This document shows, one piece after another, positions 14,368-36,564 of a stretch of DNA of 64,000 nucleotides. The stretch spans positions 349,848 through 413,847 of the forward strand of contig OZ253582.1 in assembly GCA_965263085.1 (NCBI GenBank), in the 5' to 3' direction. The notes under the pieces were generated by a model that was given only the letters and a program-made list of their open reading frames with translations, searched no databases and was not told where the DNA came from. The stretch comes from Nitrospinales bacterium. GTDB lineage: Bacteria > Nitrospinota > Nitrospinia > Nitrospinales > VA-1. Position 1 is the first letter of the stretch, and every line of letters begins with the position of its first letter. A program made the translations under genes and the position numbers.

Positions 14368-14624
14368 GCAAAGTGTGCCTTCACAGGCGTGATACCTTTT
14401 CGTAGCTGTGATATTCCTCCTTAAATTTTATACCCTCGTTATATTCCATCTAAGTACCCCGCAGGGGTGCAAGTAACAATCCCTCATGTTGTAAACAAAC
14501 GTTCTCTCGACTTCAGAAGTCCTCACTCTGCTTCTACGGCTAGTGGAGTTGAATCCCAGAAAACAAAGTGTTACGATACCCGATCAGCTTTTAAGATTGT
14601 CATTTCTTGCATCATTGGTCGGCT

Positions 14625-15416
14625 ATGGATAAAATTTTGTTCAATCTGTCTTTATTGAGTTATCTCATGGCGTCCTTTGGTTATTTTGTTTATCTGGCGT
14701 ACAGGCGACCTCTAGTTTCGACCCTTGCCGGGTGGGCGGTTGCATTTGGGCTTGTTTGCCAAACAGTGACTATAGGAATTCGCTCCAGCCAGACTGGGCA
14801 CGGGCCCTACACCACTTCGTTTGAAGTGGCATTGTTTCTGGCCTGGTTGGTGGTTGTAGTTTATTTTTTGACAGAGTGGAAATATAAAATTAAGAATTTG
14901 GGGGCTTTTGTCCTCCCTTTGGTTTTTATTGTTTTGTTATTTGCGGCTTTTCTTTCGAAAGATACGGCTTTGGTCCCAGAATCGGAGGTACGTTTCTGGC
15001 TAACCATGCATCGAACCCTGTCAATCATGGGGTACGCGGCGTTTTCTATCGCATTTGCTGCCGGAATCATGTATTTGATTCAGGAACATCAGGTTAAAAC
15101 CAAAAAGTTGAGCATTATGTATTTTAGGATGCCGTCCCTTGAAGTTCTCGATGACTTGAATTTCAAGGTGATCACGATAGGGTTTCCGTTGTTCACTCTG
15201 GGTTTTATGACCGGGTCTATTTGGAATACACAAATAGATCTGCCATTCTTCTCGTGGGATCTGACCCGGACCCTGCCGCTGGTGGTAACATGGCTGATCT
15301 ATTGTTTGGTATTTTTTGGAAGAATGATGGTCGGAATGCGAGGCAAGAAAGCCGCTCAAGGGGCTATTCTAGGATTTATAACGGTGATCGGGACTTACTT
15401 TCTACATATATTATGA
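14625..15416 (+). CDS. cytochrome c assembly protein, CcsA/ResC-like (HemX-like position next to hemA)
   Basis: Polytopic membrane ORF with a degenerate Trp-rich segment (GSIWNTQIDLPFFSWD). I prefer ATG 14625 (MDKILFNL) to the TTG at 14607. Its TGA overlaps the hemA ATG (ATGA). Confidence 0.6.
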   Translation: MDKILFNLSLLSYLMASFGYFVYLAYRRPLVSTLAGWAVAFGLVCQTVTIGIRSSQTGHGPYTTSFEVALFLAWLVVVVYFLTEWKYKIKNLGAFVLPLVFIVLLFAAFLSKDTALVPESEVRFWLTMHRTLSIMGYAAFSIAFAAGIMYLIQEHQVKTKKLSIMYFRMPSLEVLDDLNFKVITIGFPLFTLGFMTGSIWNTQIDLPFFSWDLTRTLPLVVTWLIYCLVFFGRMMVGMRGKKAAQGAILGFITVIGTYFLHIL

Positions 15417-16693
15417 TATCAGCCGAACCAAATCTTGTTCTCGTGGGGGTCAGCCATAAGACCACCCCTGTGGAAATCAGAGAGAAGCTTGCCTTCAGTC
15501 AGGTCAAGCTGGAAGCCTCTCTAGAGCAATTGGTCCGTTGCCCCGAAATTACTGAGAATATCATCCTCTCAACCTGCAACAGGGTCGAAATTTATGCTCG
15601 TGTCAATAACACCGATCGGGGTATCCAGCTTCTTAAAGATTTCATTTGCGACTATCACGGAATATCGTGCGGTAGTCTGGATGATTATTTTTACAGCTAT
15701 ACAGATAATCAGGCTGTTGAGCACCTCTTTAGAGTTTCGGCGAGTTTGGACTCGATGATTCTTGGGGAGGCTCAGATACTGGGGCAAGTGAAGGATGCCT
15801 ACAACACCGCCCGCGCATTAAGTTCTACCGGCCTGGTTCTCAACCAGTTATTTGAGAAAGCCTTCAATGTCGCTAAAAAAGTAAGAGAAGAAACCGGAAT
15901 TTCTGAGCGCGGGGTTTCTATTAGTTCCGCAGCTGTGGAACTAGCGAAAAAAATATTTGAAGATTTGGAAAACCATTCGGTCATGTTGGTGGGAACCGGG
16001 GGAATGGCCGAACTTGCTGCGAAACATCTCATGTCTTATGGTGTTAAAACTGTGTATGTAGCCAGCAGGACCTATGAACGGGGCATTTCACTTGCCCAGA
16101 CCTTGAATGGCTGTGCCTTGGACTTTGAAGCTTTTAAGGAAGAATTGTACAGGGCAGATATTATCATCACTTCTACTGCCGCGCCGAAGTTTGTCATTCA
16201 TAAAGAAATGGTAGAGCAGGCTATTCATAAAAGAAAAAATAAACCCATGTTTCTCATAGATATTGCAGTTCCCCGCGATATTGCCCCAGAGGTGAACGAT
16301 TTAGAAAATGTTTATTTGTATGACATTGATGACCTACAGAATGTGGTGAACGCGAACATGGAAGAGAGGCAGAAAGAAGCCGAAAACGCCATGGAGATCA
16401 TCAAGCAGGAAGTTGCCAAGTTTAACAACTGGTTTTCCACGCTCGACGCAGTTCCCACTATTGTTGAAATTAGAAACCGGGCAGAAGAAATGCGTATAAC
16501 GGAAGTGGATAAAACACTTAAGACCCTCACCCATCTTTCTGATAACGATCAGAGAGCAATTCATCAATTGACGCAATCATTGGTCAAGAAAATTCTTCAT
16601 AAGCCCACCATAAATCTGAAAAAGAAAACTCAATCTCTGGATGGTTACGTCTATTTAAAGGCCATTCGCCACTTATTCCATTTGGACGATTGA
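15413..16693 (+). CDS. hemA: glutamyl-tRNA reductase
   Basis: The track ORF 15221-16693 has a 64-codon extension that overlaps the previous gene. The family N-terminus starts at ATG 15413 (MISAEPNLVLVGVSHKTTPVEIREKLAF). The catalytic LSTCNRVEIYA motif is present. Confidence 0.9.
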   Translation: MISAEPNLVLVGVSHKTTPVEIREKLAFSQVKLEASLEQLVRCPEITENIILSTCNRVEIYARVNNTDRGIQLLKDFICDYHGISCGSLDDYFYSYTDNQAVEHLFRVSASLDSMILGEAQILGQVKDAYNTARALSSTGLVLNQLFEKAFNVAKKVREETGISERGVSISSAAVELAKKIFEDLENHSVMLVGTGGMAELAAKHLMSYGVKTVYVASRTYERGISLAQTLNGCALDFEAFKEELYRADIIITSTAAPKFVIHKEMVEQAIHKRKNKPMFLIDIAVPRDIAPEVNDLENVYLYDIDDLQNVVNANMEERQKEAENAMEIIKQEVAKFNNWFSTLDAVPTIVEIRNRAEEMRITEVDKTLKTLTHLSDNDQRAIHQLTQSLVKKILHKPTINLKKKTQSLDGYVYLKAIRHLFHLDD

Positions 16694-17623
16694 ATGGAAC
16701 CCAGAAAAATTAGCATTGGTAGCAGGGGGAGCCCTCTGGCATTATGGCAGGCCAATTGGGTCAAGGACCAGTTGGAATCACAGAATCCAGATATTCCTGT
16801 AGAGATTGTCATCATTAAAACTTCCGGTGATAGGATTCAGGATGTTCCGCTGGCCAAAATCGGCGGAAAGGGTTTATTCGTTAAGGAAATCGAAGAAGCC
16901 ATGTTGAGAAAAGAGGTCGATTTTGCTGTCCACAGCATGAAAGATATGCCGATCAAGTTTCCTTTTGCCTTGTGTATCGCGGCAGTGACCAAAAGAGAGA
17001 ACCCTTTCGACGCATTAATCGCAAGAGACAATCTTAAATTGGACGAACTTCCCAAAGGTGCCAAAGTCGGGACAGGCAGTTTAAGAAGGATGTCGCAATT
17101 ACTTCATTATCGTCCCGACCTGAACCTGATTTCACTCCGAGGTAACCTCGAGACGAGAATCAGAAAACTGGAAACTGAAGGACTGGACGCGATCATTCTT
17201 GCCGCAGCAGGACTCATCCGCATGGGGTGGGACGATAAAATCACAGAAATCATCAGTTCCGAAATTTTATTACCGGCAATGGGGCAGGGTGCTATCGGAA
17301 TTGAAGCGCGAAAATATGATATCGACAACCAGATCCTTCTGGCCAATATGGATGATGAAAACACGCATCTGGCATTAGATGCAGAGAGGGCAGTCGTCAC
17401 ACAGCTTGAAGGTGGTTGCAACGTTCCTATTGGCGCGTTTGCAACGATTGAAGATGATCAGATGACACTAAAAGGATTGGTCGCAAGCCTTGACGGAAAA
17501 ACGCTCTATAAAACTGAATTGCAGGGCTTCAAGCTCAATGCCATAAAAATGGGAAAAGAGCTGGGCAACACGTTATTGGAGATGGGCGGGGATAAAATTA
17601 TGCAGGAAATCCATTCGATTTGA
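16694..17623 (+). CDS. hemC: hydroxymethylbilane synthase (porphobilinogen deaminase)
   Basis: 309-aa ORF with IGSRGSPLALWQA, KTSGD and GTGSLRR motifs. Confidence 0.95.
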   Translation: MEPRKISIGSRGSPLALWQANWVKDQLESQNPDIPVEIVIIKTSGDRIQDVPLAKIGGKGLFVKEIEEAMLRKEVDFAVHSMKDMPIKFPFALCIAAVTKRENPFDALIARDNLKLDELPKGAKVGTGSLRRMSQLLHYRPDLNLISLRGNLETRIRKLETEGLDAIILAAAGLIRMGWDDKITEIISSEILLPAMGQGAIGIEARKYDIDNQILLANMDDENTHLALDAERAVVTQLEGGCNVPIGAFATIEDDQMTLKGLVASLDGKTLYKTELQGFKLNAIKMGKELGNTLLEMGGDKIMQEIHSI

Positions 17624-17721: not shown

Positions 17722-18969
17722 CTAAAGCCAAACTTCTTCAGCACCCAACCTTTCCAGAGCCAGTTCCCAGGCAGCATCCCGAAAAATAGTGTCGCTATTT
17801 TTTTTCATACGCGAATAAGTTTCGCAAACATTATTGCTGATGGTGTTATCGATCAAATTTTCCACATAAGCTCTGGTTCCTTTTTGCTTTACTCTCATCG
17901 CATAAGAATCATTGACCATTAATTGCCTTTCTACTGCACAGCCAATCACCCCGCCGGCATTAACAATGAAATCCGTGAGCGATAAAATATTGCGGCGATG
18001 GTGCAAATAATATTCCACGGGTTTACTACTGGGAGTGTTTGCGCCCTGCAAAATATAGCGGCATTGAATGCGATCTGCATTTCGTGCCGTGATAGCATCG
18101 GGTCTGGCTGATGGAATGAGGATATCGCAGGGTGCTTCCAGCAACCAGTCCAGCTTGTCTGGTGAAAACTTTCTGTCCACTTTAAGAGGATAGTTGATCA
18201 ACCCCCCTGGCTGCTTGCGAACTTTACTCAATGCATGTGCGTCTAATCCATTGGGATTCCATAACCCGATATGGGCATCAGAAGCTCCAACAAGAACGGC
18301 TCCCGATTCCTGTAGTTTCAAGGCTGTAGGCGCTCCGACATTTCCAAAACCCTGAACCACAAACTCACTCCTTGATAGATATAACGACTCGTCCATGGCC
18401 TCAAGTGCTTTAGCAGAGGAAAACAAACCATGGGCAGTGAGTTCCCAGTCATCGATCGGGATGCCGCCATTCTCGACAGGTCTTCCTGCTCCGCCTCGCA
18501 AATGCTTTTCAGTACCAAGTTTATGTGAATGGTTATTTTGAATGATTTGGATGTCATTCTCGTTGCTTCCCATATCCGGGGCAGGGGTATAGTCAGGCAA
18601 CTCAAACAGGCAATCGGCAAGTTTTTCGATCAATTCCTTCCGGTAAACTGAGTTTTCAGCCAGTTCAAGCGAGTTCAGACTAATCCCAGCTTTAGCCCCA
18701 CCATAGGGGAGACAGGCGGCACTATTCTTCAAAGTCATGGCCTGAGCCAGCCGTACAATTTCATTTAAGCTCAGATCCTGGACCATGCGTATACCTCCAA
18801 GACCCGGCCCTCTCTGGGTATTGTCTATCGTGATGTAACCCCAGATTGACGAACTATCAGGATCAATGATCTTGTAAGATTTCTTGGTGGCTAGTTCTGG
18901 GCTGGTTGTGAAGCGGTCACCCTGTTCTCTGTCCGGAAGAAGAATTGCCTTCAAACTTTTTGGAAGCAT
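17722..18969 (-). CDS. Glu/Leu/Phe/Val dehydrogenase family protein
   Basis: 415-aa ORF with GPGLGGIRM, PYGGAKAG and the Rossmann motif QGFGNVG. Confidence 0.85.
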   Translation of the reverse strand: MLPKSLKAILLPDREQGDRFTTSPELATKKSYKIIDPDSSSIWGYITIDNTQRGPGLGGIRMVQDLSLNEIVRLAQAMTLKNSAACLPYGGAKAGISLNSLELAENSVYRKELIEKLADCLFELPDYTPAPDMGSNENDIQIIQNNHSHKLGTEKHLRGGAGRPVENGGIPIDDWELTAHGLFSSAKALEAMDESLYLSRSEFVVQGFGNVGAPTALKLQESGAVLVGASDAHIGLWNPNGLDAHALSKVRKQPGGLINYPLKVDRKFSPDKLDWLLEAPCDILIPSARPDAITARNADRIQCRYILQGANTPSSKPVEYYLHHRRNILSLTDFIVNAGGVIGCAVERQLMVNDSYAMRVKQKGTRAYVENLIDNTISNNVCETYSRMKKNSDTIFRDAAWELALERLGAEEVWL

Positions 18970-18992
18970 TGATATTTTTCCCTAACTATGAG

Positions 18993-19178
18993 ATAAATGG
19001 TAGGTATTAAACCACCCCGAAACAAAAACATACCATATTTAATCGCAAAAAAAACGACACTGAATGAACCCCTATGACTGCTCATATGGAATCTCTTATT
19101 GATACTGCACTGAAGGAAGACGTGCAAAGTGGTGACATCACCACCATGAATATTATCCCAAGGGACAATTCTGCGAGG
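18993..19178 (+). pseudogene. displaced nadC promoter/5' fragment (left copy of the island-flanking direct repeat; coding part 19074-19178)
   Basis: MTAHMESLIDTALKEDVQSGDITTMNIIPRDNSAR aligns with the nadC N-terminus at 36441 (20 of 36 residues identical by my count). It contains the 22-mer CAAAGTGGTGACATCACCACCA (19125-19146), identical to 36510-36531. The outer repeat ends are approximate. Confidence 0.75.
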
Positions 19179-19186
19179 GGGGGGGG
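19177..19186 (+). repeat. G10 homopolymer at the nadC-fragment/island junction
   Basis: Counted directly: ctgcga-GGGGGGGGGG-taag. It lies 34 nt upstream of ATG 19221 and is followed by (TACAA)x3 at 19206-19220. Confidence 0.9.
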
Positions 19187-19220
19187 TAAGGCCCATGCCC
19201 TACCATACAATACAATACAA

Positions 19221-22200
19221 ATGAAACCCTGCACGCCACCAGCAAAGAAGCCGCGCCTTTTCCGGGTTGCCTACCTGTCCCTGATCTGGCTCGCCGCAAC
19301 CATCTGCGCCCTGTTGTTCACCGCCTACCCGGCTAACGCCAGCCTGATGCTCAATACATCGGGCGACCAGAATTACACGCTTGACATGGCGATCCCCAAT
19401 CTGCAACTGCCGGAAGCGACCGGCGGCACGGGGACGCTGGACTACACTCTGACCGGGCCAGACGGCGGCGCCCTGCCGGAGGGTCTGATCTTTACCCCCG
19501 GCACACGCACGCTGTCCGGCACGCCGAGCCAGCCCGGTGCCACCACCCTGACCTACACGGTCACCGATACCAGCGATGCCGGAACGGTTACGACCTCCAC
19601 CTCCACGACCTTCACGGTCAGGGTCCACATGCTCAATACACCGGACAGCCAGGCTTACGTGTTGAACAGGGCGATCACTCTGCAACTGCCGGAAGCGGCC
19701 GGCGGCAAGGGGCCGCTGGTGTACACTCTGACCAGGCGAGGCGGCGGCGCCCTGCCGGGAGGTCTGGAGTTTGACGCCGACACACGCATACTGTCCGGCA
19801 CGCCGAGCATGAACGGTTACTTCCCCCTGACCTACACGGTCACCGATGCCAACGGTGTCAGCACGAGTGTGAACTTCCTGCTCATAGTCAGGGGCAGCGT
19901 GAAGCTGACCGCACCGCTCAACCAGAATTACACGCAGGGCATGGCGATCCCCGATCTGCAACTGCCAGCAGCGACCGACGGCACGGGGACGCGGGTGTAC
20001 ACTCTGACCGGCGTGCCGGCGGGTCTGACCTTTGACGCTGGCAAACGCAAGCTGTCCGGCACGCCGAGCGCGCTCGGTTCCACTCTCCTGACCTACACGG
20101 TCACCGATGCCAACGGTGACGAGACTAGTGTGACCTTCACGGTCACGGTCAACGCCGACCTGGCGCTCAATGCACGAGGCAACCGGAGTTACGCGCAGGG
20201 CAGGACGATCAGAGATCTGCAACTACCGGAAGCGATCGGCGGCACGGGGACGCTGGTGTACACTCTGACCGGGCCAGACGGCCTAGACGACCTGCCGGCG
20301 GGTCTGACCTTTGACGCTGGCACACGCACGCTGTCCGGCACGCCGAGCACGGTCGGTGTCACCACCCTGACCTACACGGTCACCGATACCAACAATGCCA
20401 GCACGACTGCGACCTTCACGGTCAACGTCATATTTAGTAGGGGAGGAAACCTGGGGATAGTGGAGACGGATGGCCTGGATTACGCGCAGGGCAGGCCGTT
20501 CACTCGGCAACTGTCGGAAGCGACCGGCGGCATAGGGACGCTGACCTACACTCTGACCGGGCTAGACGGCGGCCCCCTGCCGGCGGGTCTGACCTTTGAC
20601 CCCGACACACGCACGCTGTCCGGCACGCCGAGCATGACCGGTAACTTCGTCATGACCTACACGGTCACCGATACCAACGATACCATCCAGGTGTTCGGAA
20701 GGGGCATCCGTATCTCCGTCTTCTCCAACCTGAGGCTCAATACATCGGGCAACCGGGGCTATACCCAGAACACTTTGATCACCGATCTGCAACTGCCGGA
20801 AGCGACCGGCGGCTTTGGGACGCTGAGGTACACTCTGACCGGGCCAGACGGCCTGCCGATGGGTCTGACCTTTGACGCTGGCACACGCACACTGTCCGGC
20901 ACGCCGAGCACGGTCGGTGTCACCACCCTGACCTACACGGTCACCGATATCAACGATGCCTTCACGGCTATGTTCTCGAGGCGCTTCACGGTCACGGTCA
21001 ACGCCGGCCTGGCGCTCAATGCATCGGGCGACCAGAATTACACGCTTGATACGGCAATCACCGATCTGCAACTGCCGGTAGCGACCGGCGGCACGGGGAC
21101 GTTGACCTACACTCTGACCGCGCCAGGCGGCGGCCTGCCGGCGGGTCTGACCTTTGACCCCGGCACACGCACGCTGTCCGGCACGCCGGACACGGCTGGT
21201 ACCACCATCTTGACCTACATGGCCACCGATACCAGCGGTGTCGGAACGGTTACGTTCTCCACGACCTTCACGGTCAAGGTCAACGCCAGCTTGGCGCTCA
21301 GTGCATCGGGCGACCAGAATTACACGCAGGGCACAGCGATCAGCGTGCAACTGCCAGCAGCGACCGGCGGCACGATGCCGCTGACCTACACTCTGACCGG
21401 CCTGCCGGCGGGTCTGACCTTTACCCCCGGCACACGCACGCTGTCCGGCACGCCGAGCACGGCTGCTACCACCACCTTGACCTACAGGGTCACAGATGAC
21501 AACGGTGCCAGCACGAGTGTGGACTTCACGGTCACGGTCAGCGACGGCCTGACGTTCGACTCTGAACCGGCCAACCAGAATTACACGCAGGGCACGGCGA
21601 TCCCCGATCTGCAACTGCCAGTAGCGACCGGCGGCACGGAGCCACTGAGGTACACTCTGACCAGTGTGCCGGGTCTGACCTTTACCCCCGGCACACGCAT
21701 ACTGTCCGGCACGCCGGACACGGCTGCTACCACCACCCTGACCTACAGGGTCACCGATACCAACGGTGCCAGCACGAGTGTGGACTTCATGGTCACGGTC
21801 AACGCCGGCTTGGCGCTGACCGCGCCGGTCGACCAGAATTACACGCAGGGCACGGCGATCACCGATCTGCCTCTGCCGGAAGCGAGCGGAGGCACGGAGC
21901 CGCTGACCTACACTCTGACAGGGCCAGGCGACAGCGCCCTGCAGGGAGGTCTGGACTTTACCCCCGGCACACGCACGCTGTCCGGCACGCCGAGCACGCC
22001 TGCTACCACCACCCTGACCTACGAGGTCACCGATACCAACGGTGCCAGCGACAGTGTGGACTTCACCGTCATAGTCAACGCCAAACTGGCACTCGATACA
22101 CCGGACGACCAGAATTACACGCAGGACAAGGCGATCACCAATCTGGAACTGCCAGCAGCGACCGGCGGCACCGGGACGCTGACCTACACTCTGACCGGCC

Positions 22201-25200
22201 TGCCGGGAGGTCTGACCTTTAGCGGACGCACGCTGTCCGGCACGCCTGACACGGATGGTGACTTCACCCTGACCTACGAGGTCAGCGATGCCAACGGTGC
22301 CAGCACGAGTGTGGACTTCACCGTCATAGTCAACGCCAAACTGGCACTCGATACACCGGACGACCAGAATTACACGCAGGGCAGGGCGATCACCGATCTG
22401 ACTCTGCCGGCAGCGAGCGGCGGCACCGGGACGCTGACCTACACTCTGACCGGGCTAGGCGGCCTGCCGGGAGGTCTGAACTTTACCGCCGGCACACGCA
22501 CGCTATCCGGCACGCCAAGCACGCCTGGTACTACCACCTTGACCTACGAGGTCACCGATACCAACAGTGCCAGCACGACTGCGACCTTCATGGTCAAGGT
22601 CAACGCCGAACTGGGGCTCAATGCATCGGGCAACCAGAATTACACGCAGGACAGGAGGATCCCCGGTGGTCTGTTTCTGCCGGAAGCAACCGGCGGCACG
22701 GCGCCACTGACGTACACTCTGACCGCGCCAGGCGGCCTGCCGGCGGGTCTGGAATTTAACGTCAACGCACGCCTACTGTTCGGCCCGCCGAGCACGCCTG
22801 CTACCACCACCCTGACCTACACGGTCACCGATGCCAACGGTGCCAGCAAGAGTGTGGACTTCATGGTCACGGTCAACCCCGGCTTGGCGCCGCTGACCGC
22901 GCCGGCCGACCAGAATTACACGCAGGGCAGGGCGATCACCGATCTGACTCTGCCGGCAGCGACCGGCGGCACGGAGCCATTGACGTACACTCTGACCGGC
23001 CTGCCGCCGGGTCTGACCTTTGACACACGCACGCTGTCCGGCACGCCGGACACGCCTGGTACCTTTGACCTGACCTACGAGGTCACCGATGCCAACGGTG
23101 CCAGCACGGATGTGACCTTCATGGTCACGGTCAACGAGGGCTTGGCTCTGACCGCATCGAGCAACCAGAATTACACGCTTAACACGGCGATCCCCGCTCT
23201 GACTCTGCCGGCAGCGGACGGCGGCACCGGGACGCTGACCTACACTCTGACCGGGCCAGGCGGCCTGCCGGGAGGTCTGGACTTTAGCGGACGCACGCTG
23301 TCCGGCACACCGGACACGGCTGGTGACTTCACCCTGACCTACGAGGTCATGGATGCCAACGGTGCCAGCACGACTGCGACCTTCACGGTTAGTGTCAGCG
23401 ACGGCTTGGCACTCAGTGCACGAGGCGACCAGAATTACACGCAGGACAAGGCGATCACCGATCTGGAACTGCCGATAGCGAGCGGCGGCACGGCGCCACT
23501 GACCTACACTCTGACCAGTGTGCCGGGTCTGGACTTTAACGCCAACACACGCATACTGTCCGGCACACCGAGCACGGCTGATACCTTCGACCTGACCTAC
23601 GAGGTCACCGATGCCAACGGTGCCAGCACGACTGCGACCTTCACGGTCATAGTCAGCGACGGCTTGGCACTCAGTGCACGAGGCGACCAGAATTACACGC
23701 TTGATACGGCGATCACCGATCTGGAACTGCCGGAAGCGAGCGGCGGCACCGGGACGCTGACCTACACTCTGACCGGGCCAGGCGACAGCGCCCTGCCGGG
23801 AGGTCTGACCTTTAGCGGACGCATACTGTCCGGCACACCGGACACGGCTGGTGACTTCACCCTGACCTACACGGTCACCGATACCAACAATGCCACCACG
23901 ACTGCGACCTTCACGGTCATAGTCAGCGATGGCTTGGCACTCAGTGCACGAGGCGACCAGAATTACACGCAGGACAAGGCGATCACCGATCTGGAACTGC
24001 CGATAGCGAGCGGCGGCACGGCGCCACTGACCTACACTCTGACCAGTGTGCCGGGTCTGGACTTTAACGCCAACACACGCACGCTGTCCGGCACACCGAG
24101 CACGGCTGATACCTTCGACCTGACCTACGAGGTCACCGATGCCAACGGTGCCAGCACGACTGCGACCTTCACGGTCATAGTCAGCGACGGCTTGGCACTC
24201 AGTGCACGAGGCGACCAGAATTACACGCTTAACACGGCGATCACCGGTCTGGAACTGCCGGAAGCGGACGGCGGCACCGGGACGCTGACCTACACTCTGA
24301 CCGGGCCAGGCGGCCTGCCGGGAGGTCTGGACTTTAGCGGACGCACGCTGTCCGGCACACCGGACACGGCTGGTGACTTCACCCTGACCTACACGGTCAC
24401 CGATACCAACGATGCCACCACGACTGCGACCTTCACGGTCATAGTCAGCGACGGCTTGGCACTCAGTGCACGAGGCGACCAGAATTACACGCAGGACAAG
24501 GCGATCACCGATCTGGAACTGCCGATAGCGAGCGGCGGCACGGCGCCACTGACCTACACTCTGACCAGTGTGCCGGGTCTGGACTTTAACGCCAACACAC
24601 GCACGCTGTCCGGCACACCGAGCACGGCTGATACCTTCGACCTGACCTACGAGGTCACCGATGCCAACGGTGCCAGCACGACTGCGACCTTCACGGTCAT
24701 AGTCAGCGACGGCTTGGCGCTGACCGCATCGGGCAACCAGAATTACACGCTTGATACGGAGATCACCGCTCTGGAACTGCCGGTAGCGACCGGCGGCACC
24801 GGGACGCGGACCTACACTCTGACCGGGCCAAGCGGCCTGCCGGGAGGTCTGGACTTTGACGTCGACACACGCATACTGTCCGGCACGCCGACCGAGGTCG
24901 GTACCACCACCCTGACCTACGAGGTCATGGATGAAAACGGTGCCAGCACGAGTGTGGACTTCACGGTCACGGTCAACGCCGGCTTGACGCTGACCGCATC
25001 GGGCAACCAGAATTACACGCAGGGCACGGCGATCACCGATCTGCCACTGCCAGCAGCGACCGGCGGCACGATGCCGCTGACCTACACTCTGACCAGTGTG
25101 CCGGGTCTGGACTTTAACGCCGGCACACGCACGCTGTCCGGCACGCCGAGCACCGCCACTAGTACCACCACCCTGACCTACGAGGTCACCGATGCCAACA

Positions 25201-26327
25201 ATGCCAGCACGAGTGTGGACTTCACGGTCACGGTCAACGCCGGCTTGACGCTGACCGCATCGGGCAACCAGAATTACACGCTTGATACGGCGATCACCGG
25301 TCTGGAACTGCCGGTAGCGACCGGCGGCACGATGCCGCTGACCTACACTCTGACCGGGCCAAGCGGCGGCAACCTACCGGCGGGTCTGACCTTTAGCGGA
25401 CGCACGCTGTCCGGCACGCCGACCGAGGTCGGTACCACCACCCTGACCTACGAGGTCATGGATGAAAACGGTGCCAGCACGAGTGTGGACTTCACGGTCA
25501 CGGTCAACGCCGGCTTGGCACTCAGTGCACGAGGCGACCAGAATTACACAGAGGACACGGCGATCCCCGATCTGGAACTGCCGGAAGCGAGCGGCGGCAC
25601 GGAGCCACTGGTGTACACTCTGACAGGGCCAGGCGACAGCGCCCTGCCGGGAGGTCTGACCTTTAGCGGACGCACGCTGTCCGGCACACCGACCGAGGTC
25701 GGTACCACCACCCTGACCTACGAGGTCATGGATGAAAACGGTGCCAGCACGAGTGTGGACTTCACGGTCACGGTCAACGCCGGCTTGGCACTCAGTGCAC
25801 GAGGCGACCAGAATTACACAGAGGACACGGCGATCCCCGATCTGGAACTGCCGGAAGCGAGCGGCGGCACGGAGCCACTGGTGTACACTCTGACAGGGCC
25901 AGGCGACAGCGCCCTGCCGGGAGGTCTGACCTTTAGCGGACGCACGCTGTCCGGCACACCGGACACGGCTGCTACCACCATCTTGACCTACACGGTCATG
26001 GATGACAACGGTGCCAGCACGAGTGTGGACTTCACGGTCACGGTCAACGAGGGCTTGGCGCTGACCGCATCGGGCGACCAGAATTACACGCAGGGCACGG
26101 CGATCACCAATCTGGAACTGCCAGCAGCGACCGGCGGCACGGCGCTGCTGGTGTACACTCTGACCAGTGTGCCGGGTCTGGACTTTGACCCCGGCACACG
26201 CACGCTGTCCGGCACGCCGAGCACGCCTGCTACCACCACCCTGACCTACATGGTCAGCGATGCCAACGGTGCCAGCACGACTGCGACCTTCACCGTCATA
26301 GTCAGCGACGGCTTAGCGGCGCGCTGA
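19221..26327 (+). CDS. giant autotransporter adhesin, N-terminal segment (signal peptide + 26 He_PIG/cadherin-like Ig modules); frame lost at 26.3 kb
   Basis: The track ORF is 19074-26327. I place the start at ATG 19221 because MKPCTPPAKKPRLFRVAYLSLIWLAATICALLFTAYPANA/S is a canonical Sec signal peptide (basic n-region, hydrophobic core, AxA site). The modules carry the signature LP.A.GG.G.L.Y.L..LP.GL.F...R.LSGTP.....LTY.V.D.NG.S...F.V.V. The ORF ends at a TGA created by 5 extra nt in a linker (gcttAGCGGCgcgcTGAccg versus canonical gcttggcgctgaccg) and has no barrel of its own. Confidence 0.8.
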   Translation: MKPCTPPAKKPRLFRVAYLSLIWLAATICALLFTAYPANASLMLNTSGDQNYTLDMAIPNLQLPEATGGTGTLDYTLTGPDGGALPEGLIFTPGTRTLSGTPSQPGATTLTYTVTDTSDAGTVTTSTSTTFTVRVHMLNTPDSQAYVLNRAITLQLPEAAGGKGPLVYTLTRRGGGALPGGLEFDADTRILSGTPSMNGYFPLTYTVTDANGVSTSVNFLLIVRGSVKLTAPLNQNYTQGMAIPDLQLPAATDGTGTRVYTLTGVPAGLTFDAGKRKLSGTPSALGSTLLTYTVTDANGDETSVTFTVTVNADLALNARGNRSYAQGRTIRDLQLPEAIGGTGTLVYTLTGPDGLDDLPAGLTFDAGTRTLSGTPSTVGVTTLTYTVTDTNNASTTATFTVNVIFSRGGNLGIVETDGLDYAQGRPFTRQLSEATGGIGTLTYTLTGLDGGPLPAGLTFDPDTRTLSGTPSMTGNFVMTYTVTDTNDTIQVFGRGIRISVFSNLRLNTSGNRGYTQNTLITDLQLPEATGGFGTLRYTLTGPDGLPMGLTFDAGTRTLSGTPSTVGVTTLTYTVTDINDAFTAMFSRRFTVTVNAGLALNASGDQNYTLDTAITDLQLPVATGGTGTLTYTLTAPGGGLPAGLTFDPGTRTLSGTPDTAGTTILTYMATDTSGVGTVTFSTTFTVKVNASLALSASGDQNYTQGTAISVQLPAATGGTMPLTYTLTGLPAGLTFTPGTRTLSGTPSTAATTTLTYRVTDDNGASTSVDFTVTVSDGLTFDSEPANQNYTQGTAIPDLQLPVATGGTEPLRYTLTSVPGLTFTPGTRILSGTPDTAATTTLTYRVTDTNGASTSVDFMVTVNAGLALTAPVDQNYTQGTAITDLPLPEASGGTEPLTYTLTGPGDSALQGGLDFTPGTRTLSGTPSTPATTTLTYEVTDTNGASDSVDFTVIVNAKLALDTPDDQNYTQDKAITNLELPAATGGTGTLTYTLTGLPGGLTFSGRTLSGTPDTDGDFTLTYEVSDANGASTSVDFTVIVNAKLALDTPDDQNYTQGRAITDLTLPAASGGTGTLTYTLTGLGGLPGGLNFTAGTRTLSGTPSTPGTTTLTYEVTDTNSASTTATFMVKVNAELGLNASGNQNYTQDRRIPGGLFLPEATGGTAPLTYTLTAPGGLPAGLEFNVNARLLFGPPSTPATTTLTYTVTDANGASKSVDFMVTVNPGLAPLTAPADQNYTQGRAITDLTLPAATGGTEPLTYTLTGLPPGLTFDTRTLSGTPDTPGTFDLTYEVTDANGASTDVTFMVTVNEGLALTASSNQNYTLNTAIPALTLPAADGGTGTLTYTLTGPGGLPGGLDFSGRTLSGTPDTAGDFTLTYEVMDANGASTTATFTVSVSDGLALSARGDQNYTQDKAITDLELPIASGGTAPLTYTLTSVPGLDFNANTRILSGTPSTADTFDLTYEVTDANGASTTATFTVIVSDGLALSARGDQNYTLDTAITDLELPEASGGTGTLTYTLTGPGDSALPGGLTFSGRILSGTPDTAGDFTLTYTVTDTNNATTTATFTVIVSDGLALSARGDQNYTQDKAITDLELPIASGGTAPLTYTLTSVPGLDFNANTRTLSGTPSTADTFDLTYEVTDANGASTTATFTVIVSDGLALSARGDQNYTLNTAITGLELPEADGGTGTLTYTLTGPGGLPGGLDFSGRTLSGTPDTAGDFTLTYTVTDTNDATTTATFTVIVSDGLALSARGDQNYTQDKAITDLELPIASGGTAPLTYTLTSVPGLDFNANTRTLSGTPSTADTFDLTYEVTDANGASTTATFTVIVSDGLALTASGNQNYTLDTEITALELPVATGGTGTRTYTLTGPSGLPGGLDFDVDTRILSGTPTEVGTTTLTYEVMDENGASTSVDFTVTVNAGLTLTASGNQNYTQGTAITDLPLPAATGGTMPLTYTLTSVPGLDFNAGTRTLSGTPSTATSTTTLTYEVTDANNASTSVDFTVTVNAGLTLTASGNQNYTLDTAITGLELPVATGGTMPLTYTLTGPSGGNLPAGLTFSGRTLSGTPTEVGTTTLTYEVMDENGASTSVDFTVTVNAGLALSARGDQNYTEDTAIPDLELPEASGGTEPLVYTLTGPGDSALPGGLTFSGRTLSGTPTEVGTTTLTYEVMDENGASTSVDFTVTVNAGLALSARGDQNYTEDTAIPDLELPEASGGTEPLVYTLTGPGDSALPGGLTFSGRTLSGTPDTAATTILTYTVMDDNGASTSVDFTVTVNEGLALTASGDQNYTQGTAITNLELPAATGGTALLVYTLTSVPGLDFDPGTRTLSGTPSTPATTTLTYMVSDANGASTTATFTVIVSDGLAAR

Positions 26328-27477
26328 CCGCATCGGGCAACCAGAATTACACGCTTGATACGGCGATCACCGATCTGGAACTGCCGGAAGCGAGCGGCGG
26401 CACGGAGCCACTGACCTACACTCTGACCAGTGTGCCGGGTCTGACCTTTACCCCCGGCACACGCACGCTGTCCGGCACGCCGCCAGAGTCATAGTCCGAC
26501 GGCTTGGCGCACGCAACCAGAATTACAGATCACCACGGACCTACACTCTGCCAGCACCCTCACGGTCACGGTACACGGTCATGGATGACAACGGTGCCAG
26601 CACGAGTGTGGACTTCACGGTCACGGTCAACGACGGCTTGGCACTCAGTGCACGAGGCGACCAGAATTACACGCAGGACAAGGCGATCACCGATCTGCAA
26701 CTGCCGATAGCGAGCGGCGACCGACCAGCACGGGCTTTACCCCCGGCACACGCCACTGACCTACACTCTGACCAGTGTGCCGGGTCTGGACTTTGACCCC
26801 GGCACACGCACGCTGTCCGGCACGCCGACCGAGGTCGGTACCACCACCCTGACCTACGAGGTCATGGATGAAAACGGTGCCAGCACGAGTGTGGACTTCA
26901 CGGTCACGGTCAACGCCGGCTTGGCACTCAGTGCACGAGGCGACCAGAATTACACAGAGGACACGGCGATCCCCGATCTGGAACTGCCGGAAGCGAGCGG
27001 CGGCACGGAGCCACTGACCTACACTCTGACCAGTGTGCCGGGTCTGGACTTTGACGCCGACACACGCATACTGTCCGGCACACCGAGCACGCCTGCTACC
27101 ACCACCCTGACCTACATGGTCAGCGATGCCAACGGTGCCAGCACGACTGCGACCTTCACCGTCATAGTCAGCGACGGCTTGGCGCTGACCGCATCGGGCA
27201 ACCAGAATTACACAGATCACCGCTCTGGACAAGGCGATCACCGACTCTGCCAACTGCCGGAAGCGACGCACGCTGTCCGGCACGCCGAGTACCACCACCC
27301 TGACCTACAGGTCATGGATGAAAACGGTGCCACACGAGTGACTTCACGGTCACGGTCAACGCCGGCGCACTCAGTGCACGAGGCGACCAGAATTACACAG
27401 AGGACACGGCGATCCCCGATCTGGAACTGCCGGAAGCGAGCGGCGGCACGGAGCCACTGACCTACACTCTGACCAGT
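26311..27477 (+). other. scrambled-repeat zone interrupting the adhesin frame (assembly collapse or genuine disruption)
   Basis: Four patches (26314-26323, 26471-26580, 26716-26760, 27215-27375) are shredded or misplaced module pieces. They are separated by intact canonical modules, and ORF 26777-27460 reads through two of those. Confidence 0.8.
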
Positions 27478-30400
27478 GTGCCGGGTCTGGACTTTGACGC
27501 CGACACACGCATACTGTCCGGCACACCGAGCACGCCTGCTACCACCACCCTGACCTACATGGTCAGCGATGCCAACGGTGCCAGCACGACTGCGACCTTC
27601 ACCGTCATAGTCAGCGACGGCTTGGCGCTGACCGCATCGGGCAACCAGAATTACACGCAGGACAAGGCGATCCCCGATCTGCAACTGCCGGAAGCGAGCG
27701 GCGGCACGGAGCCACTGACCTACACTCTGACCAGTGTGCCGGGTCTGGACTTTGACGCCGACACACGCATACTGTCCGGCACACCGAGCACGCCTGCTAC
27801 CACCACCCTGACCTACATGGTCAGCGATGCCAACGGTGCCAGCACGACTGCGACCTTCACCGTCATAGTCAGCGACGGCTTGGCGCTGACCGCATCGGGC
27901 AACCAGAATTACACAGAGGACAAGGCGATCCCCGATCTGCAACTGCCGATAGCGACCGGAGGCACGGGGACGCTGACCTACACTCTGACCGGGCCAAGCG
28001 GCGGCAACCTACCGGCGGGTCTGACCTTTAGCGGACGCACGCTGTCCGGCACGCCGACCGAGGTCGGTACCACCACCCTGACCTACGAGGTCATGGATGA
28101 AAACGGTGCCAGCACGAGTGTGGACTTCACGGTCACGGTCAACGCCGGCTTGGCACTCAGTGCACGAGGCGACCAGAATTACACAGAGGACACGGCGATC
28201 CCCGATCTGGAACTGCCGGAAGCGAGCGGCGGCACGGAGCCACTGACCTACACTCTGACCAGTGTGCCGGGTCTGGACTTTGACGCCGACACACGCATAC
28301 TGTCCGGCACACCGAGCACGCCTGCTACCACCACCCTGACCTACATGGTCAGCGATGCCAACGGTGCCAGCACGACTGCGACCTTCACCGTCATAGTCAG
28401 CGACGGCTTGGCGCTGACCGCATCGGGCAACCAGAATTACACGCAGGACAAGGCGATCCCCGATCTGCAACTGCCGATAGCGACCGGAGGCACGGGGACG
28501 CTGACCTACACTCTGACCAGTGTGCCGGGTCTGGACTTTGACCCCGGCACACGCACGCTGTCCGGCACGCCGAGCACGCCTGCTACCACCACCCTGACCT
28601 ACATGGTCAGCGATGCCAACGGTGCCAGCACGACTGCGACCTTCACCGTCATAGTCAGCGACGGCTTGGCGCTGACCGCATCGGGCAACCAGAATTACAC
28701 GCAGGACAAGGCGATCCCCGATCTGGAACTGCCGGTAGCGACCGGCGGCACGGAGCCACTGACCTACACTCTGACCAGTGTGCCGGGTCTGGACTTTAAC
28801 CCCGGCACACGCATACTGTCCGGCACACCGAGCACGGCTGATACCACTACCCTGACCTACACGGTCACCGATACCAACGGTGCCAGCGAGAATGCGACCT
28901 TCATGGTCACGGTCAACGCCAGCTTAGCGCTGACCGCGCCGGTCGACCAGAATTACACGCTTGATACGGAGATCACCGGTCTGACTCTGCCGGAAGCGGA
29001 CGGCGGCACGGCGCCGCTGACCTACACTCTGACCAGCGTGCCGGGTCTGAACTTTAACGCCAACACACGCACGCTGTCCGGCACGCCGAGCACGGCTGAT
29101 ACCACTACCCTGACCTACACGGTCACCGATACCAACGGTGCCAGCGAGAATGCGACCTTCATGGTCACGGTCAACGCCAGCTTAGCGCTGACCGCGCCGG
29201 TCGACCAGAATTACACGCTTGATACGGAGATCACCGGTCTGACTCTGCCGGAAGCGGACGGCGGCACGGCGCCGCTGACCTACACTCTGACCAGCGTGCC
29301 GGGTCTGAACTTTAACGCCAACACACGCACGCTGTCCGGCACGCCGAGCACGGCTGATACCACTACCCTGACCTACACGGTCACCGATACCAACGGGGCC
29401 AGCGAGAATGCGACCTTCACGGTCACGGTCAACGAGGGCTTGGCGCTGACCGCATCGGGCAACCAGAATTACACAGAGGGCAGGGTGATCACCGCTCTGC
29501 AACTGCCGGTAGCGACCGGCGGCACGGGAACGCTGGTGTACACTCTGACAGGGCCAAGCGGCGGCAACCTGCCGGCGGGTCTGACCTTTACCCCTGGCAC
29601 ACGCACGCTGTCCGGCACGCCGAGCACGGCTGATACCACTACCCTGACCTACACGGTCACCGATACCAACGGTGCCAGCGAGAATGCGACCTTCATGGTC
29701 ACGGTCAACGCCAGCTTAGCGCTGACCGCGCCGGTCGACCAGAATTACACGCTTGATACGGAGATCACCGGTCTGACTCTGCCGGAAGCGGACGGCGGCA
29801 CCGGGACGCTGACCTACACTCTGACCAGCGTGCCGGGTCTGACCTTTACCCCCGGCACACGCACGCTGTCCGGCACGCCGAGCACGGCTGATACCACTAC
29901 CCTGACCTACACGGTCACCGATACCAACGGTGCCAGCGAGAATGCGACCTTCATGGTCACGGTCAACGCCAGCTTAGCGCTGACCGCGCCGGTCGACCAG
30001 AATTACACGCTTGATACGGAGATCACCGGTCTGACTCTGCCGGAAGCGGACGGCGGCACGGCGCCGCTGACCTACACTCTGACCAGCGTGCCGGGTCTGA
30101 ACTTTAACGCCAACACACGCACGCTGTCCGGCACGCCGAGCACGGCTGATACCACTACCCTGACCTACACGGTCACCGATACCAACGGTGCCAGCGAGAA
30201 TGCGACCTTCATGGTCACGGTCAACGCCAGCTTAGCGCTGACCGCGCCGGTCGACCAGAATTACACGCTTGATACGGAGATCACCGGTCTGACTCTGCCG
30301 GAAGCGGACGGCGGCACGGCGCCGCTGACCTACACTCTGACCAGCGTGCCGGGTCTGAACTTTAACGCCAACACACGCACGCTGTCCGGCACGCCGAGCA

Positions 30401-33400
30401 CGGCTGATACCACTACCCTGACCTACACGGTCACCGATACCAACGGGGCCAGCGAGAATGCGACCTTCACGGTCACGGTCAACGAGGGCTTGGCGCTGAC
30501 CGCATCGGGCAACCAGAATTACACAGAGGGCAGGGTGATCACCGCTCTGCAACTGCCGGTAGCGACCGGCGGCACGGGAACGCTGGTGTACACTCTGACA
30601 GGGCCAAGCGGCGGCAACCTGCCGGCGGGTCTGACCTTTACCCCTGGCACACGCACGCTGTCCGGCACGCCGAGCACGGCTGATACCACTACCCTGACCT
30701 ACACGGTCACCGATACCAACGGTGCCAGCGAGAATGCGACCTTCATGGTCACGGTCAACGCCAGCTTAGCGCTGACCGCGCCGGTCGACCAGAATTACAC
30801 AGAGGGCAGGGTGATCACCGCTCTGGAACTGCCGGTAGCGACCGGCGGCACCGGGACGCTGACCTACACTCTGACCAGCGTGCCGGGTCTGAACTTTAAC
30901 GCCAACACACGCACGCTGTCCGGCACGCCGAGCACGGCTGATACCACTACCCTGACCTACACGGTCACCGATACCAACGGTGCCAGCGAGAATGCGACCT
31001 TCATGGTCACGGTCAACGCCAGCTTAGCGCTGACCGCGCCGGTCGACCAGAATTACACAGAGGGCAGGGTGATCACCGCTCTGGAACTGCCGGTAGCGAC
31101 CGGCGGCACCGGGACGCTGACCTACACTCTGACCAGCGTGCCGGGTCTGACCTTTACCCCCGGCACACGCACGCTGTCCGGCACGCCGAGCACGGCTGAT
31201 ACCACTACCCTGACCTACACGGTCACCGATACCAACGGTGCCAGCGAGAATGCGACCTTCATGGTCACGGTCAACGCCAGCTTAGCGCTGACCGCGCCGG
31301 TCGACCAGAATTACACGCTTGATACGGAGATCACCGGTCTGACTCTGCCGGAAGCGGACGGCGGCACGGCGCCGCTGACCTACACTCTGACCAGCGTGCC
31401 GGGTCTGAACTTTAACGCCAACACACGCACGCTGTCCGGCACGCCGAGCACGGCTGATACCACTACCCTGACCTACACGGTCACCGATACCAACGGGGCC
31501 AGCGAGAATGCGACCTTCACGGTCACGGTCAACGAGGGCTTGGCGCTGACCGCATCGGGCAACCAGAATTACACAGAGGGCAGGGTGATCACCGCTCTGC
31601 AACTGCCGGTAGCGACCGGCGGCACCGGGACGCTGACCTACACTCTGACCAGCGTGCCGGGTCTGACCTTTACCCCCGGCACACGCACGCTGTCCGGCAC
31701 GCCGAGCACGGCTGATACCACTACCCTGACCTACACGGTCACCGATACCAACGGTGCCAGCGAGAATGCGACCTTCATGGTCACGGTCAACGCCAGCTTA
31801 GCGCTGACCGCGCCGGTCGACCAGAATTACACGCTTGATACGGAGATCACCGGTCTGACTCTGCCGGAAGCGGACGGCGGCACGGCGCCGCTGACCTACA
31901 CTCTGACCAGCGTGCCGGGTCTGAACTTTAACGCCAACACACGCACGCTGTCCGGCACGCCGAGCACGGCTGATACCACTACCCTGACCTACACGGTCAC
32001 CGATACCAACGGGGCCAGCGAGAATGCGACCTTCACGGTCACGGTCAACGAGGGCTTGGCGCTGACCGCATCGGGCAACCAGAATTACACAGAGGGCAGG
32101 GTGATCACCGCTCTGGAACTGCCGGTAGCGACCGGCGGCACCGGGACGCTGACCTACACTCTGACCAGCGTGCCGGGTCTGACCTTTAACGCCAACACAC
32201 GCACGCTGTCCGGCACGCCGAGCACGGCTGATACCACTACCCTGACCTACACGGTCACCGATACCAACGGTGCCAGCGAGAATGCGACCTTCATGGTCAC
32301 GGTCAACGAGGGCTTGGCGCTGACCGCGCCGGTCGACCAGAATTACACGCTTGATACGGAGATCACCGGTCTGACTCTGCCGGAAGCGGACGGCGGCACG
32401 GCGCCGCTGACCTACACTCTGACCAGCGTGCCGGGTCTGAACTTTAACGCCAACACACGCACGCTGTCCGGCACGCCGAGCACGGCTGATACCACTACCC
32501 TGACCTACACGGTCACCGATACCAACGGGGCCAGCGAGAATGCGACCTTCACGGTCACGGTCAACGAGGGCTTGGCGCTGACCGCATCGGGCAACCAGAA
32601 TTACACAGAGGGCAGGGTGATCACCGCTCTGGAACTGCCGGTAGCGACCGGCGGCACCGGGACGCTGACCTACACTCTGACCAGCGTGCCGGGTCTGACC
32701 TTTAACGCCAACACACGCACGCTGTCCGGCACGCCGAGCACGGCTGATACCACTACCCTGACCTACGAGGTCATGGATGACAACGGGGCCAGCACGAGTG
32801 TGGACTTCACGGTCACGGTCAACGAGGGCTTGGCGCTGACCGCATCGGGCAACCAGAATTACACGCTTGATACGGAGATCGACGATCTGCAACTGCCGGA
32901 AGCGAGCGGCGGCACGGGAACGCTGGTGTACACTCTGACAGGGCCAAGCGGCGGCAACCTGCCGGCGGGTCTGACCTTTGACACACGCACACTGTCCGGC
33001 ACGCCGGACACGGCTGGTACCACCAACCTGACCTACAGGGTCACCGATGCCAACGATGCCACCACGACTGCGACCTTCACCGTCATAGTCAGCGACGGCT
33101 TGGCGCTGACCGCATCCGGCAACCAGAATTACACGCTTGGCACGGCGATCACCAATCTGGAACTGCCAGCAGCGACCGGCGGCACGGCGCCACTGACGTA
33201 CACTCTGACCAGTGTGCCGGGTCTGGACTTTGACCCCGGCACACGCACGCTGTCCGGCACGCCGAGCACGCCTGCTACCACCACCCTGACCTACATGGTC
33301 AGCGATGCCAACGGTGCCAGCACGACTGCGACCTTCACCGTCATAGTCAGCGACGGCTTGGCGCTGACCGCATCGGGCAACCAGAATTACACGCTTAATA

Positions 33401-36339: not shown

Positions 36340-36393
36340 CAGGAGAGGGGCCAGGATCGCATTAGCTATTCTGTTTCTTCTTTGCTGTGAGGC

Positions 36394-36564
36394 TGATAAA
36401 ATGGTTAAAGTTTTAACACCATTTTGACCGCGAAAACAAGATGCCGAATAAACCTCTCATGGCTGTAGATATTGAGTCCCTCATCATCACCACCCTGGAA
36501 GAAGACATCCAAAGTGGTGACATCACCACCAGGAGCATTATACCTGAGGGACAACTCCGCGAGG
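36394..36564 (+). repeat. right copy of the island-flanking direct repeat (nadC promoter/5' end)
   Basis: About 75-80% identical by eye to 18993-19178. The perfect 22-mer core lies at 36510-36531. The outer repeat ends are approximate. Confidence 0.7.
36398..36425. promoter_or_regulatory. 28-nt AT-rich imperfect palindrome just upstream of nadC (operator or weak terminator candidate)
   Basis: AAAATGGT-taaagttttaac-ACCATTTT, with an inner TTAAA/TTTAA pairing. It lies 15 nt before ATG 36441 and about 60 nt after the adhesin stop. Confidence 0.3.

Follow-up and report, generated by a model that had tools for sequence, protein, structure and literature searches.

Does a run of ten guanines (G10) lying shortly before the start codon of a giant adhesin gene modulate the expression of that gene, or is it a leftover of the way in which the gene came to lie there? 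The question is raised by a stretch of 64,000 nucleotides (the window; contig OZ253582.1) from a Nitrospinales bacterium, in which the tract is located inside a short open reading frame (ORF), the leader ORF, that opens at a relic of the 5' end of nadC and runs toward the adhesin. An earlier reading made from the sequence alone had proposed that the tract could phase-vary the adhesin. We consider it about an even chance (a probability of approximately 0.5) that the tract is a slippage-prone functional modulator of adhesin expression; the locus is a likely contingency (phase-variation) locus. Of the earlier proposal, the length variation and the surface target both stand, and the effect on expression is predicted from the sequence.

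Reading frames around the tract

The elements between the relic nadC start and the adhesin start, all on the plus strand, are as follows.

19074 (+): relic nadC ATG, start of the leader ORF, read from the sequence
19177-19186 (+): G10 homopolymer, the hypervariable tract, beginning exactly at the end of nadC homology
19187-19194 (+): spacer TAAGGCCC (TAAGG in the window); in every other allele TAGACCC, one base shorter
19195-19224 (+): nine-codon mini-ORF opened by a first ATG (ATG1), MPYHTIQYK and stop, whose TGA overlaps the adhesin ATG
19206-19220 (+): (TACAA)x3 pentanucleotide repeat; x2 elsewhere, with a version 6 nt shorter in one copy (L010 copy 2)
19221 (+): adhesin ATG (ATG2), read from the sequence
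Predicted leader-adhesin fusion product: peptides MTAHMESL.../...GGGKAHALPYNTIQMK

As sequenced, positions 19074 to 26327 appear in the ORF list as a single ORF of 2417 amino acids. In-silico editing of the tract demonstrated that G10, G7 or G13 joins the ORF from 19074 to the adhesin in frame, with 49 additional residues, that G9, G6 or G12 causes the leader ORF to terminate at a TGA overlapping the adhesin ATG (ATGA), and that G11, G8 or G14 halts it at a TAA immediately past the tract. The outcomes that the sequence-only reading had worked out for G9, G10 and G11 were thus reproduced exactly, and its coordinates for the tract, for both ATGs and for the pentanucleotide repeat all match the sequence. 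One point absent from it is ATG1, which sits after the G tract and TAAGG in the window; outside the window, every tract-bearing allele has it in frame with the adhesin, and gene callers take it as the start codon in those alleles.

G10 is the longest homopolymer in the 64-kb window and the sole G/C run of at least 8 nt there. The run alone proves nothing, since dinucleotide-preserving shuffles of the window, which includes 17 kb of 63% GC DNA, show that such a run is not improbable: G9 was matched 0.95 times per window on average, and two or more matches occurred in 26 of 100 shuffles. What argues for more than chance, on the sequences compared below, is the recurrence of the tract at the same junction with differing lengths among related copies, and not the run itself.

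Length variation among related copies

We compared nine copies of the leader, which occupy three loci in the genomes of several Nitrospinaceae strains that occur together. The related copies were recovered by exact-protein look-ups as independent contigs (labeled L001 and so on) from the ENA assemblies ERZ26695855 and ERZ26695902; to judge from the contig names, these are probably long-read assemblies, and the coverage of two of them is 7-9x. For each copy, the tract, the spacer, the pentanucleotide repeat and the fate of the leader ORF are given.

Window: G10, spacer TAAGG, TACAA x3; leader ORF fused to the adhesin
L001: G9, spacer TAGA, TACAA x2; leader ORF ends on ATGA
L009: G6-T-G7, spacer TAGA, TACAA x2; leader ORF ends at a TAG past the tract
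L006 copy 1: G18, spacer TAGA, TACAA x2; leader ORF ends on ATGA
L006 copy 2: tract lost, nadC codon 27 fused in frame to the adhesin; ORF of >2067 amino acids
L010 copy 1: G14, spacer TAGA, TACAA x2; leader ORF fused
L010 copy 2: G20, spacer TAGA, TACAA region 6 nt shorter; leader ORF fused, with a relic of the other nadC type
L011 copy 1: G10, spacer TAGA, TACAA x2; leader ORF fused
L011 copy 2: G24, spacer TAGA, TACAA x2; leader ORF ends on ATGA

The cross-strain comparison of tract length, which had been proposed as a check in the earlier reading, therefore gives a non-uniform picture: eight of the nine copies carry tracts of seven distinct lengths (9 to 24 G, one of them interrupted by a T), and the ninth has lost the tract. 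The surrounding DNA is stable. Across an 11.3-kb flank, 23 substitutions and 0 indels separate the window from L001 (99.8% identical), the flank of L009 has 0 indels across 3 kb, an A8 run 130 nt upstream of the tract is A8 in all copies, and a T8 run in the flanks is also free of indels. In all tract-bearing copies, including L010 copy 2 with its other nadC-type relic, the tract adjoins the end of nadC homology. By this comparison, the tract is a genuine hypermutable poly-G simple-sequence repeat, and no other site comes near it in length variability; its alleles differ by as much as 15 nt beside indel-free flanks, which indicates that it is real and not miscalled.

All three frame states occur among the natural alleles (five fused, three overlapping at ATGA, and one stopped early). 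Long ORFs run from the relic start in the window (2417 amino acids), in L010 copy 2 (>1520 amino acids) and in L011 copy 1 (1260 amino acids), as well as in L006 copy 2, where the fusion is hard-wired in the absence of a tract. Other searches yielded little: an exact-pattern scan of JGI metagenome contigs with the adhesin start gave no match, a scan of the same contigs with a 20-mer of the nadC relic gave one unrelated chance match (L007), and exact look-ups of the window nadC protein and of a 77-amino-acid fragment of the neighboring GDH gene (P0004) found neither on record. When the leader and the adhesin N-terminus were searched for homologues, a single protein came up, and it pointed to L006.

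A candidate contingency locus and its possible mechanism

The features by which contingency loci are recognized are present here at the level of sequence, namely, a tract of at least 8 nt, polymorphism among strains with stable flanks, and a surface-protein target, and the reading frame in which the leader ORF meets the adhesin depends on tract length. In the mechanism that we propose, slipped-strand mispairing would change the length of the tract at high frequency, and, with the tract inside the ORF opened by the relic nadC start, each change would reset the frame of ribosomes arriving from upstream. In the first frame these ribosomes would read straight into the adhesin to produce the fusion, which is probably the strongest state; in the second, the leader ORF would terminate on the ATGA stop-start overlap at ATG2; and in the third it would halt just past the tract, a few bases before ATG1. 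Tract length together with TACAA copy number could then set a graded level of expression, independently for each adhesin copy.

This leader-ORF frame mechanism is the leading sub-hypothesis on how the tract may act, and we put it forward tentatively, as one that may well prove wrong. The same holds for its extension to the whole lineage, a doubtful proposal under which at least three paralogous adhesin genes, each with a portable nadC-derived leader and its own tract of 9-24 G, would form a graded, multi-state translational switch. If it is true, a free-living marine nitrite oxidizer would possess combinatorial surface variation, for example against phages or grazers, and Nitrospinota would have its first described contingency-locus system. 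The sequence-only reading had spoken of a three-state switch; the frame arithmetic and the presence of natural alleles in all states agree with it, and the restriction to just three states does not, as ATG1 and TACAA add more. The termination-reinitiation arrangement (ATGA) that it described is not that of the window, where G10 is fused, and is present in L001, L006 copy 1 and L011 copy 2.

Comparable tracts at homologous genes in other genomes

Three other genomes (L012, L013 and L014) have autotransporter genes homologous to the adhesin, and these too carry long G/C runs, two of which lie where they would plainly act on translation.

L012, 9741-9756: C16
L013, 8358-8418: region of G11
L013, 9291-9299: C9
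L014, 6758-6777: G20
L014, 1851-1874: C24

In L013, a match to 11 of the 12 positions of the sigma-70 consensus is followed 7 nt beyond by an ATG, five codons and then G11; the frame is restored by G10 or G13, and C9 is located at the following ORF break. In L014, G20 lies precisely at the ORF break, and G18 or G21 lengthens the ORF from 1097 to 1738 amino acids. In both genomes, the tracts as sequenced have lengths that put the ORFs out of frame, and gaining or losing one or two bases is enough to reopen long ORFs. C16 of L012, the sole long run in 22 kb, is placed differently: it is in the upstream intergenic region, before the gene's own Shine-Dalgarno motif and ATG. Two high-GC homologues (L015 and L016) had no long tracts. 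The sole G/C run of at least 9 nt away from such genes and their immediate upstream regions is C24 of L014, which has an insertion sequence between it and the adhesin start; otherwise, long G/C runs are absent from the approximately 300 kb of sequence that was fetched. As minor observations, the L012 gene is apparently frameshifted at short T6 and C4 runs close to the signal peptide, and L014 has three copies of a DDE_Tnp_1_4 transposase (2081-3394, 14575-15888 and 16161-17474) within 22 kb around the adhesin, one of them between the C24 tract and the adhesin start.

Relation to known systems

The closest documented case is uspA1 of Moraxella catarrhalis, in which a poly-G tract of approximately 9-12 nt shortly precedes the start codon of an autotransporter adhesin, G9 and G10 shift expression in a graded manner at the mRNA level, and neighboring strain-specific indels change which length gives high expression (PMC7302503). 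The two systems share a poly-G tract upstream of the start of an autotransporter-type adhesin. UspA1, however, is a trimeric autotransporter and comes from a pathogen adapted to its host, whereas the present organism is a free-living marine nitrite oxidizer, and the tract described here is inside an upstream ORF recycled from nadC and extends up to 24 nt. In licA of Haemophilus influenzae, a translational switch, the number of CAAT repeats decides which start codon is in phase, resulting in multiple states (PMC2212159). A repeat number that selects among start codons in different frames, with more than two states, is what the present locus would share with licA. The licA repeat is within its own 5' coding region and one of its frames is a true OFF state; here, in contrast, the upstream starts come from the relic of another gene, and the out-of-frame states end at or near adhesin starts with no clear OFF state.

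Intragenic poly-G/C frameshift tracts of at least 8 nt that vary in length between strains are familiar from the 5' coding part of outer-membrane protein genes in Neisseria, Campylobacter and Helicobacter. G11 of L013, placed after codon 5, and G20 of L014, in mid-ORF, have exactly this appearance, whereas the tract of the window precedes the adhesin's own start codons. Overlapping stop-start (ATGA) signals bring about translational coupling in Escherichia coli operons, where the arrangement is fixed and joins two functional genes. The TGA of the leader overlaps the adhesin ATG in the same manner in the G9-type frame (L001, L006 copy 1 and L011 copy 2); here, however, the overlap would be one state among three that can replace one another, and its upstream partner is the relic of a gene.

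To our knowledge, repeat-driven phase variation has been documented almost entirely in host-adapted pathogens and commensals. The present case is unusual in its host, a free-living marine nitrite oxidizer, and in its leader, recycled from the 5' end of a housekeeping gene and copied with the cassette. Uncultured marine Nitrospinaceae are key nitrite oxidizers of the ocean, and a hypervariable poly-G tract precedes their giant adhesins. If the tract is functional, stochastic surface switching would belong to the way of life of free-living chemolithoautotrophs, for example when they attach to particles or escape phages and grazers. A foreign gene also appears to have been wired into its host by recycling the 5' end of nadC as a leader, which then duplicated along with it. 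When genes are called in long-read metagenome assemblies, the exact frame at tracts of this kind should be read with caution.

Arguments against a switch and alternative explanations

Several observations weigh against the tract as a modulator of adhesin expression or narrow what it could do. The Shine-Dalgarno motif is missing from most genes of this genome, and none precedes 19221; its lack at 19221 is uninformative, because most genes here are without one. Thus, the sequence-only reading was right that the adhesin ATG has no such motif, and the dependence on ribosomes delivered from upstream that it drew from this does not follow. A consensus scan of 18800-19400 found no sigma-70-like promoter, neither a promoter nor a Shine-Dalgarno motif was identified for the ATG at 19074, and sigma-70 scans of the region upstream of the intact nadC and of a relative's intergenic region gave no site or only a weak one. 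The captured nadC promoter of the sequence-only reading, and with it transcription from the relic region, is thus an assumption. A role of the tract as the spacer between -35 and -10 hexamers was rejected: there are no flanking hexamers, and the TACAAT hexamers are too near ATG2 and have no -35. The leader RNA folds less well than shuffled controls (z of approximately +2), with the ATG2 region unpaired, and folding of four alleles revealed no conserved structure that sequesters the adhesin ATG. It is plausible from these folds that the adhesin start may initiate independently of the leader, since the ATG2 region is unstructured and Shine-Dalgarno motifs are rare genome-wide.

The frames themselves also set limits. 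In the alleles with two TACAA copies, the leader ORF is fused, ends at a TAG 4 nt before ATG1 or ends on ATGA at ATG2, and each frame leads to an in-frame adhesin start; there is therefore no evident OFF state in these alleles, and an effect that is graded rather than on/off seems more likely. Tracts of 14-24 G would probably slip in transcription too, which would blur the frames. The tally of frame states is compatible with chance (binomial P of approximately 0.15), and an excess of the fused frame, five of nine alleles, was dropped as not significant. In addition, the exact tract lengths listed above may be off by one base, the adhesin ORF of the window is interrupted at 26320-27460, and the nadC relic carries indels in several alleles (+3, +4, -1 and -2 nt), a pseudogene-like decay in which the ancestral ATG has been lost.

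The rival reading that survives best regards the tract as a neutral, hypermutable scar, that is, a slippage-prone junction left over in a decaying nadC pseudogene, with the adhesin translated from ATG2 or ATG1 regardless. The decay of the relic, the genome-wide rarity of Shine-Dalgarno motifs, the unstructured and CA-rich start region, and a frame distribution not different from random all agree with such a scar, as does L006 copy 2, which is tractless and yet retains its long ORF. However, long G/C runs recur at homologous autotransporter genes in three genomes, in positions that change ORFs, and are otherwise absent from the fetched sequence; moreover, the tract has been retained and expanded to 24 nt at three paralogous loci rather than decaying. 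We regard a neutral scar as unlikely, although it deserves to be taken seriously.

A second reading accepts that the tract acts and dispenses with the nadC leader ORF: the tract could modulate the 5' untranslated region or the transcript, or its GGGGG, 7-8 nt before ATG1, could mimic a Shine-Dalgarno motif, in which case ATG1 would be the true start and TACAA copy number the real frame switch. The in-frame position of ATG1 outside the window and its choice by gene callers speak for this reading, and so do the TACAA region of L010 copy 2, whose 6-nt shortening preserves the ATG1 frame, and the constant spacing of 7-8 nt between the G run and ATG1. The uspA1 precedent operates at the mRNA level, and in L012, too, C16 comes before both the Shine-Dalgarno motif and the ATG that belong to the gene. 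Against this, frequent slippage would hardly be expected of a pentamer present in two or three copies. The tract also keeps its 3' edge in a constant position with respect to ATG1, and a change in its length would leave the Shine-Dalgarno spacing as it is. In the RNA folds, the 3' end of the tract pairs with CCCUAC around ATG1, and no promoter elements lie beside the tract. Action without the leader appears rather improbable.

The tract could instead serve recombination, with non-template G runs forming a G-quadruplex or R-loop that stimulates recombination and gene conversion among the paralogous cassettes, as the pilE G4 of Neisseria gonorrhoeae stimulates recombination. At least three paralogous cassettes exist, leaders are mosaic (L009, and L010 copy 2 with its other nadC type), and the leader and the adhesin 5' end diverge approximately 29 times as much as the flank. 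G9 and G10, however, are too short for a stable intramolecular quadruplex of three tetrads, nothing links the mosaicism to the tract, and the case is purely analogical, which makes this role very improbable.

An artefact, either a homopolymer sequencing error, which the sequence-only reading had itself considered, or a chimeric join of AT-rich and GC-rich DNA, can be set aside almost entirely: the window assembly is visibly damaged within its repeat array, and long homopolymers are the main error class of long-read-like contigs such as these, but the same junction occurs in independent contigs of two assemblies, nadC-derived repeats lie on both sides of the island, the length differences far exceed miscall error, and the flanks, with their A8 and T8 runs, are free of indels. 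A chimeric join through an Illumina-type poly-G artefact was ruled out by the recurrence in independent contigs and the bracketing nadC repeats.

The host locus and the origin of the leader

The GC content is approximately 44% across the window except for a block of 63% GC from about 19190 to 36400. The genes that flank the block are housekeeping genes, namely, hemA, hemC, GDH (minus strand), nadC and ubiE, and the closest genomes are metagenome-assembled genomes (MAGs) of Nitrospinaceae/Nitrospina, with GDH identity of 71-80%. The elements at the two borders are as follows.

17722-18969 (-): GDH, a Glu/Leu-type dehydrogenase (Pfam ELFV_dehydrog), the ancestral divergent neighbor of nadC
18970-19073 (no strand): left copy of the ancestral GDH-nadC intergenic region, from alignment with relatives; identical in the window, L001 and L009
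19074-19176 (+): relic nadC 5' end, which is the leader ORF, 34 codons from the conserved Met7 (MTAHMESLIDTALKEDVQSGDITT...), from translation and protein alignment with the nadC of relatives
36365-36564 (+): right copy of the ancestral intergenic region and nadC 5' end, a diverged direct repeat of 18970-19178
36441-37295 (+): intact nadC (quinolinate phosphoribosyltransferase), headed by the right repeat copy

The empty site is seen in four Nitrospina MAGs, where GDH and nadC are divergent neighbors and no adhesin separates them. In the left copy, the ancestral nadC ATG is mutated (ACA CTG AAT...) and the leader ORF begins at the conserved Met7; nadC homology stops at ...GCGAGG, exactly where the G run starts. 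The cassette is bracketed by two diverged copies, each of approximately 200 bp, of the intergenic region and about 40 nadC codons. These copies differ from each other far more than the strains do (strains are 99.8% identical). The bracketing repeats suggest an old duplication, or else a recombination event that brought in one of the copies from a different lineage.

The GC-rich adhesin cassette is, by its composition, foreign and horizontally acquired, because GC content at third codon positions is 0.78-0.79 in the repeat ORFs and 0.42-0.49 in six host genes; it is 0.69 in the C-terminal anchor. No integrase was found in the island, which holds adhesin ORFs only, and there are no short identical att repeats. 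A site-specific integrative element at nadC was ruled out, with no integrase and with flanking repeats that are long and diverged.

Between the window and L001, the relic has diverged approximately 29 times as much as the flank. Divergence between these strains rises from 0.2% in the 11.3-kb flank to approximately 6% in the nadC relic and is higher in the first adhesin repeats (19074-19850), and L009 combines, as a mosaic, segments resembling the window with others resembling L001. The sequences suggest gene conversion among paralogous cassettes. A few kb past nadC, in otherwise housekeeping surroundings, there is a gene for a small leucine-rich-repeat protein (39076-39618).

The adhesin gene

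The GC-rich block contains ORFs with He_PIG repeats only (at least 55 repeats in total), arranged as follows.

19221-26327 (+): adhesin ORF part 1, with a signal-peptide-like N-terminus (MKPCTPPAKKPRLFRVAYLSLIWLAATICALLFTAYPANA) and 26 He_PIG Ig-like repeats
26320-27460 (+): degraded stretch of the repeat array, with many small and large deletions relative to neighboring repeats
26777-27460 (+): middle He_PIG-repeat ORF, inside the degraded stretch
27478-36339 (+): adhesin ORF part 3, with 29 He_PIG repeats and a C-terminal anchor at approximately 34990-36339 that ends ...NIRF

The three ORFs look like a single gene of approximately 5,700 codons, broken at the degraded stretch; at the same place, L001 has a continuous ORF of >4426 amino acids that runs off the contig. 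The break may be either assembly damage in the repeats or recent decay (pseudogenization). In appearance, the stretch resembles consensus damage in tandem-repeat assembly more than ordinary mutational decay. The last 549 amino acids of the adhesin in the window gave no match to PF03797 at E<=1 (hmmscan) and no PDB sequence match, and its C-terminal 450 amino acids had no direct Pfam or PDB match. Homologues of the anchor with 40-74% identity are annotated as PF03797 Autotransporter, and some are named autotransporter domain proteins. By these annotations, the product is a surface-type protein and a candidate classical (type Va) autotransporter, with a predicted outer-membrane anchor.

Further cassettes in the lineage

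The same leader was found at three loci, namely, the GDH locus (L001 and L009) and two tandem cassettes at a ferredoxin locus. In L006, L010 and L011, the tandem pair is downstream of a NapG-like ferredoxin gene; each of these cassettes is preceded by a co-duplicated 190-nt GDH 5' fragment, the intergenic region and the nadC relic, and a partial nadC follows the first cassette. The positions belonging to this locus are as follows.

L006: 9562-10040 and 15215-15620
L010: 11317-11800 and 17480-17860
L011: 11317-11780 and 16733-17205

To judge from these sequences, at least two more genomic positions have received a copy of the cassette together with its leader (relic nadC start, G tract, ATG1, TACAA and ATG2). 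The GDH fragment P0004, which is on the same contig as the GDH protein of the window, shares the junction of the ferredoxin locus, and the genome of the window therefore very probably carries this second locus as well.

Beside the ferredoxin-locus adhesins there are genes for ParE-type toxin-antitoxin systems and GmrSD, HEPN and DUF4238 defence genes. The set varies by strain, in the manner of a variable defence islet (L006 3010-5322, L010 4008-7081 and L011 4733-7082).

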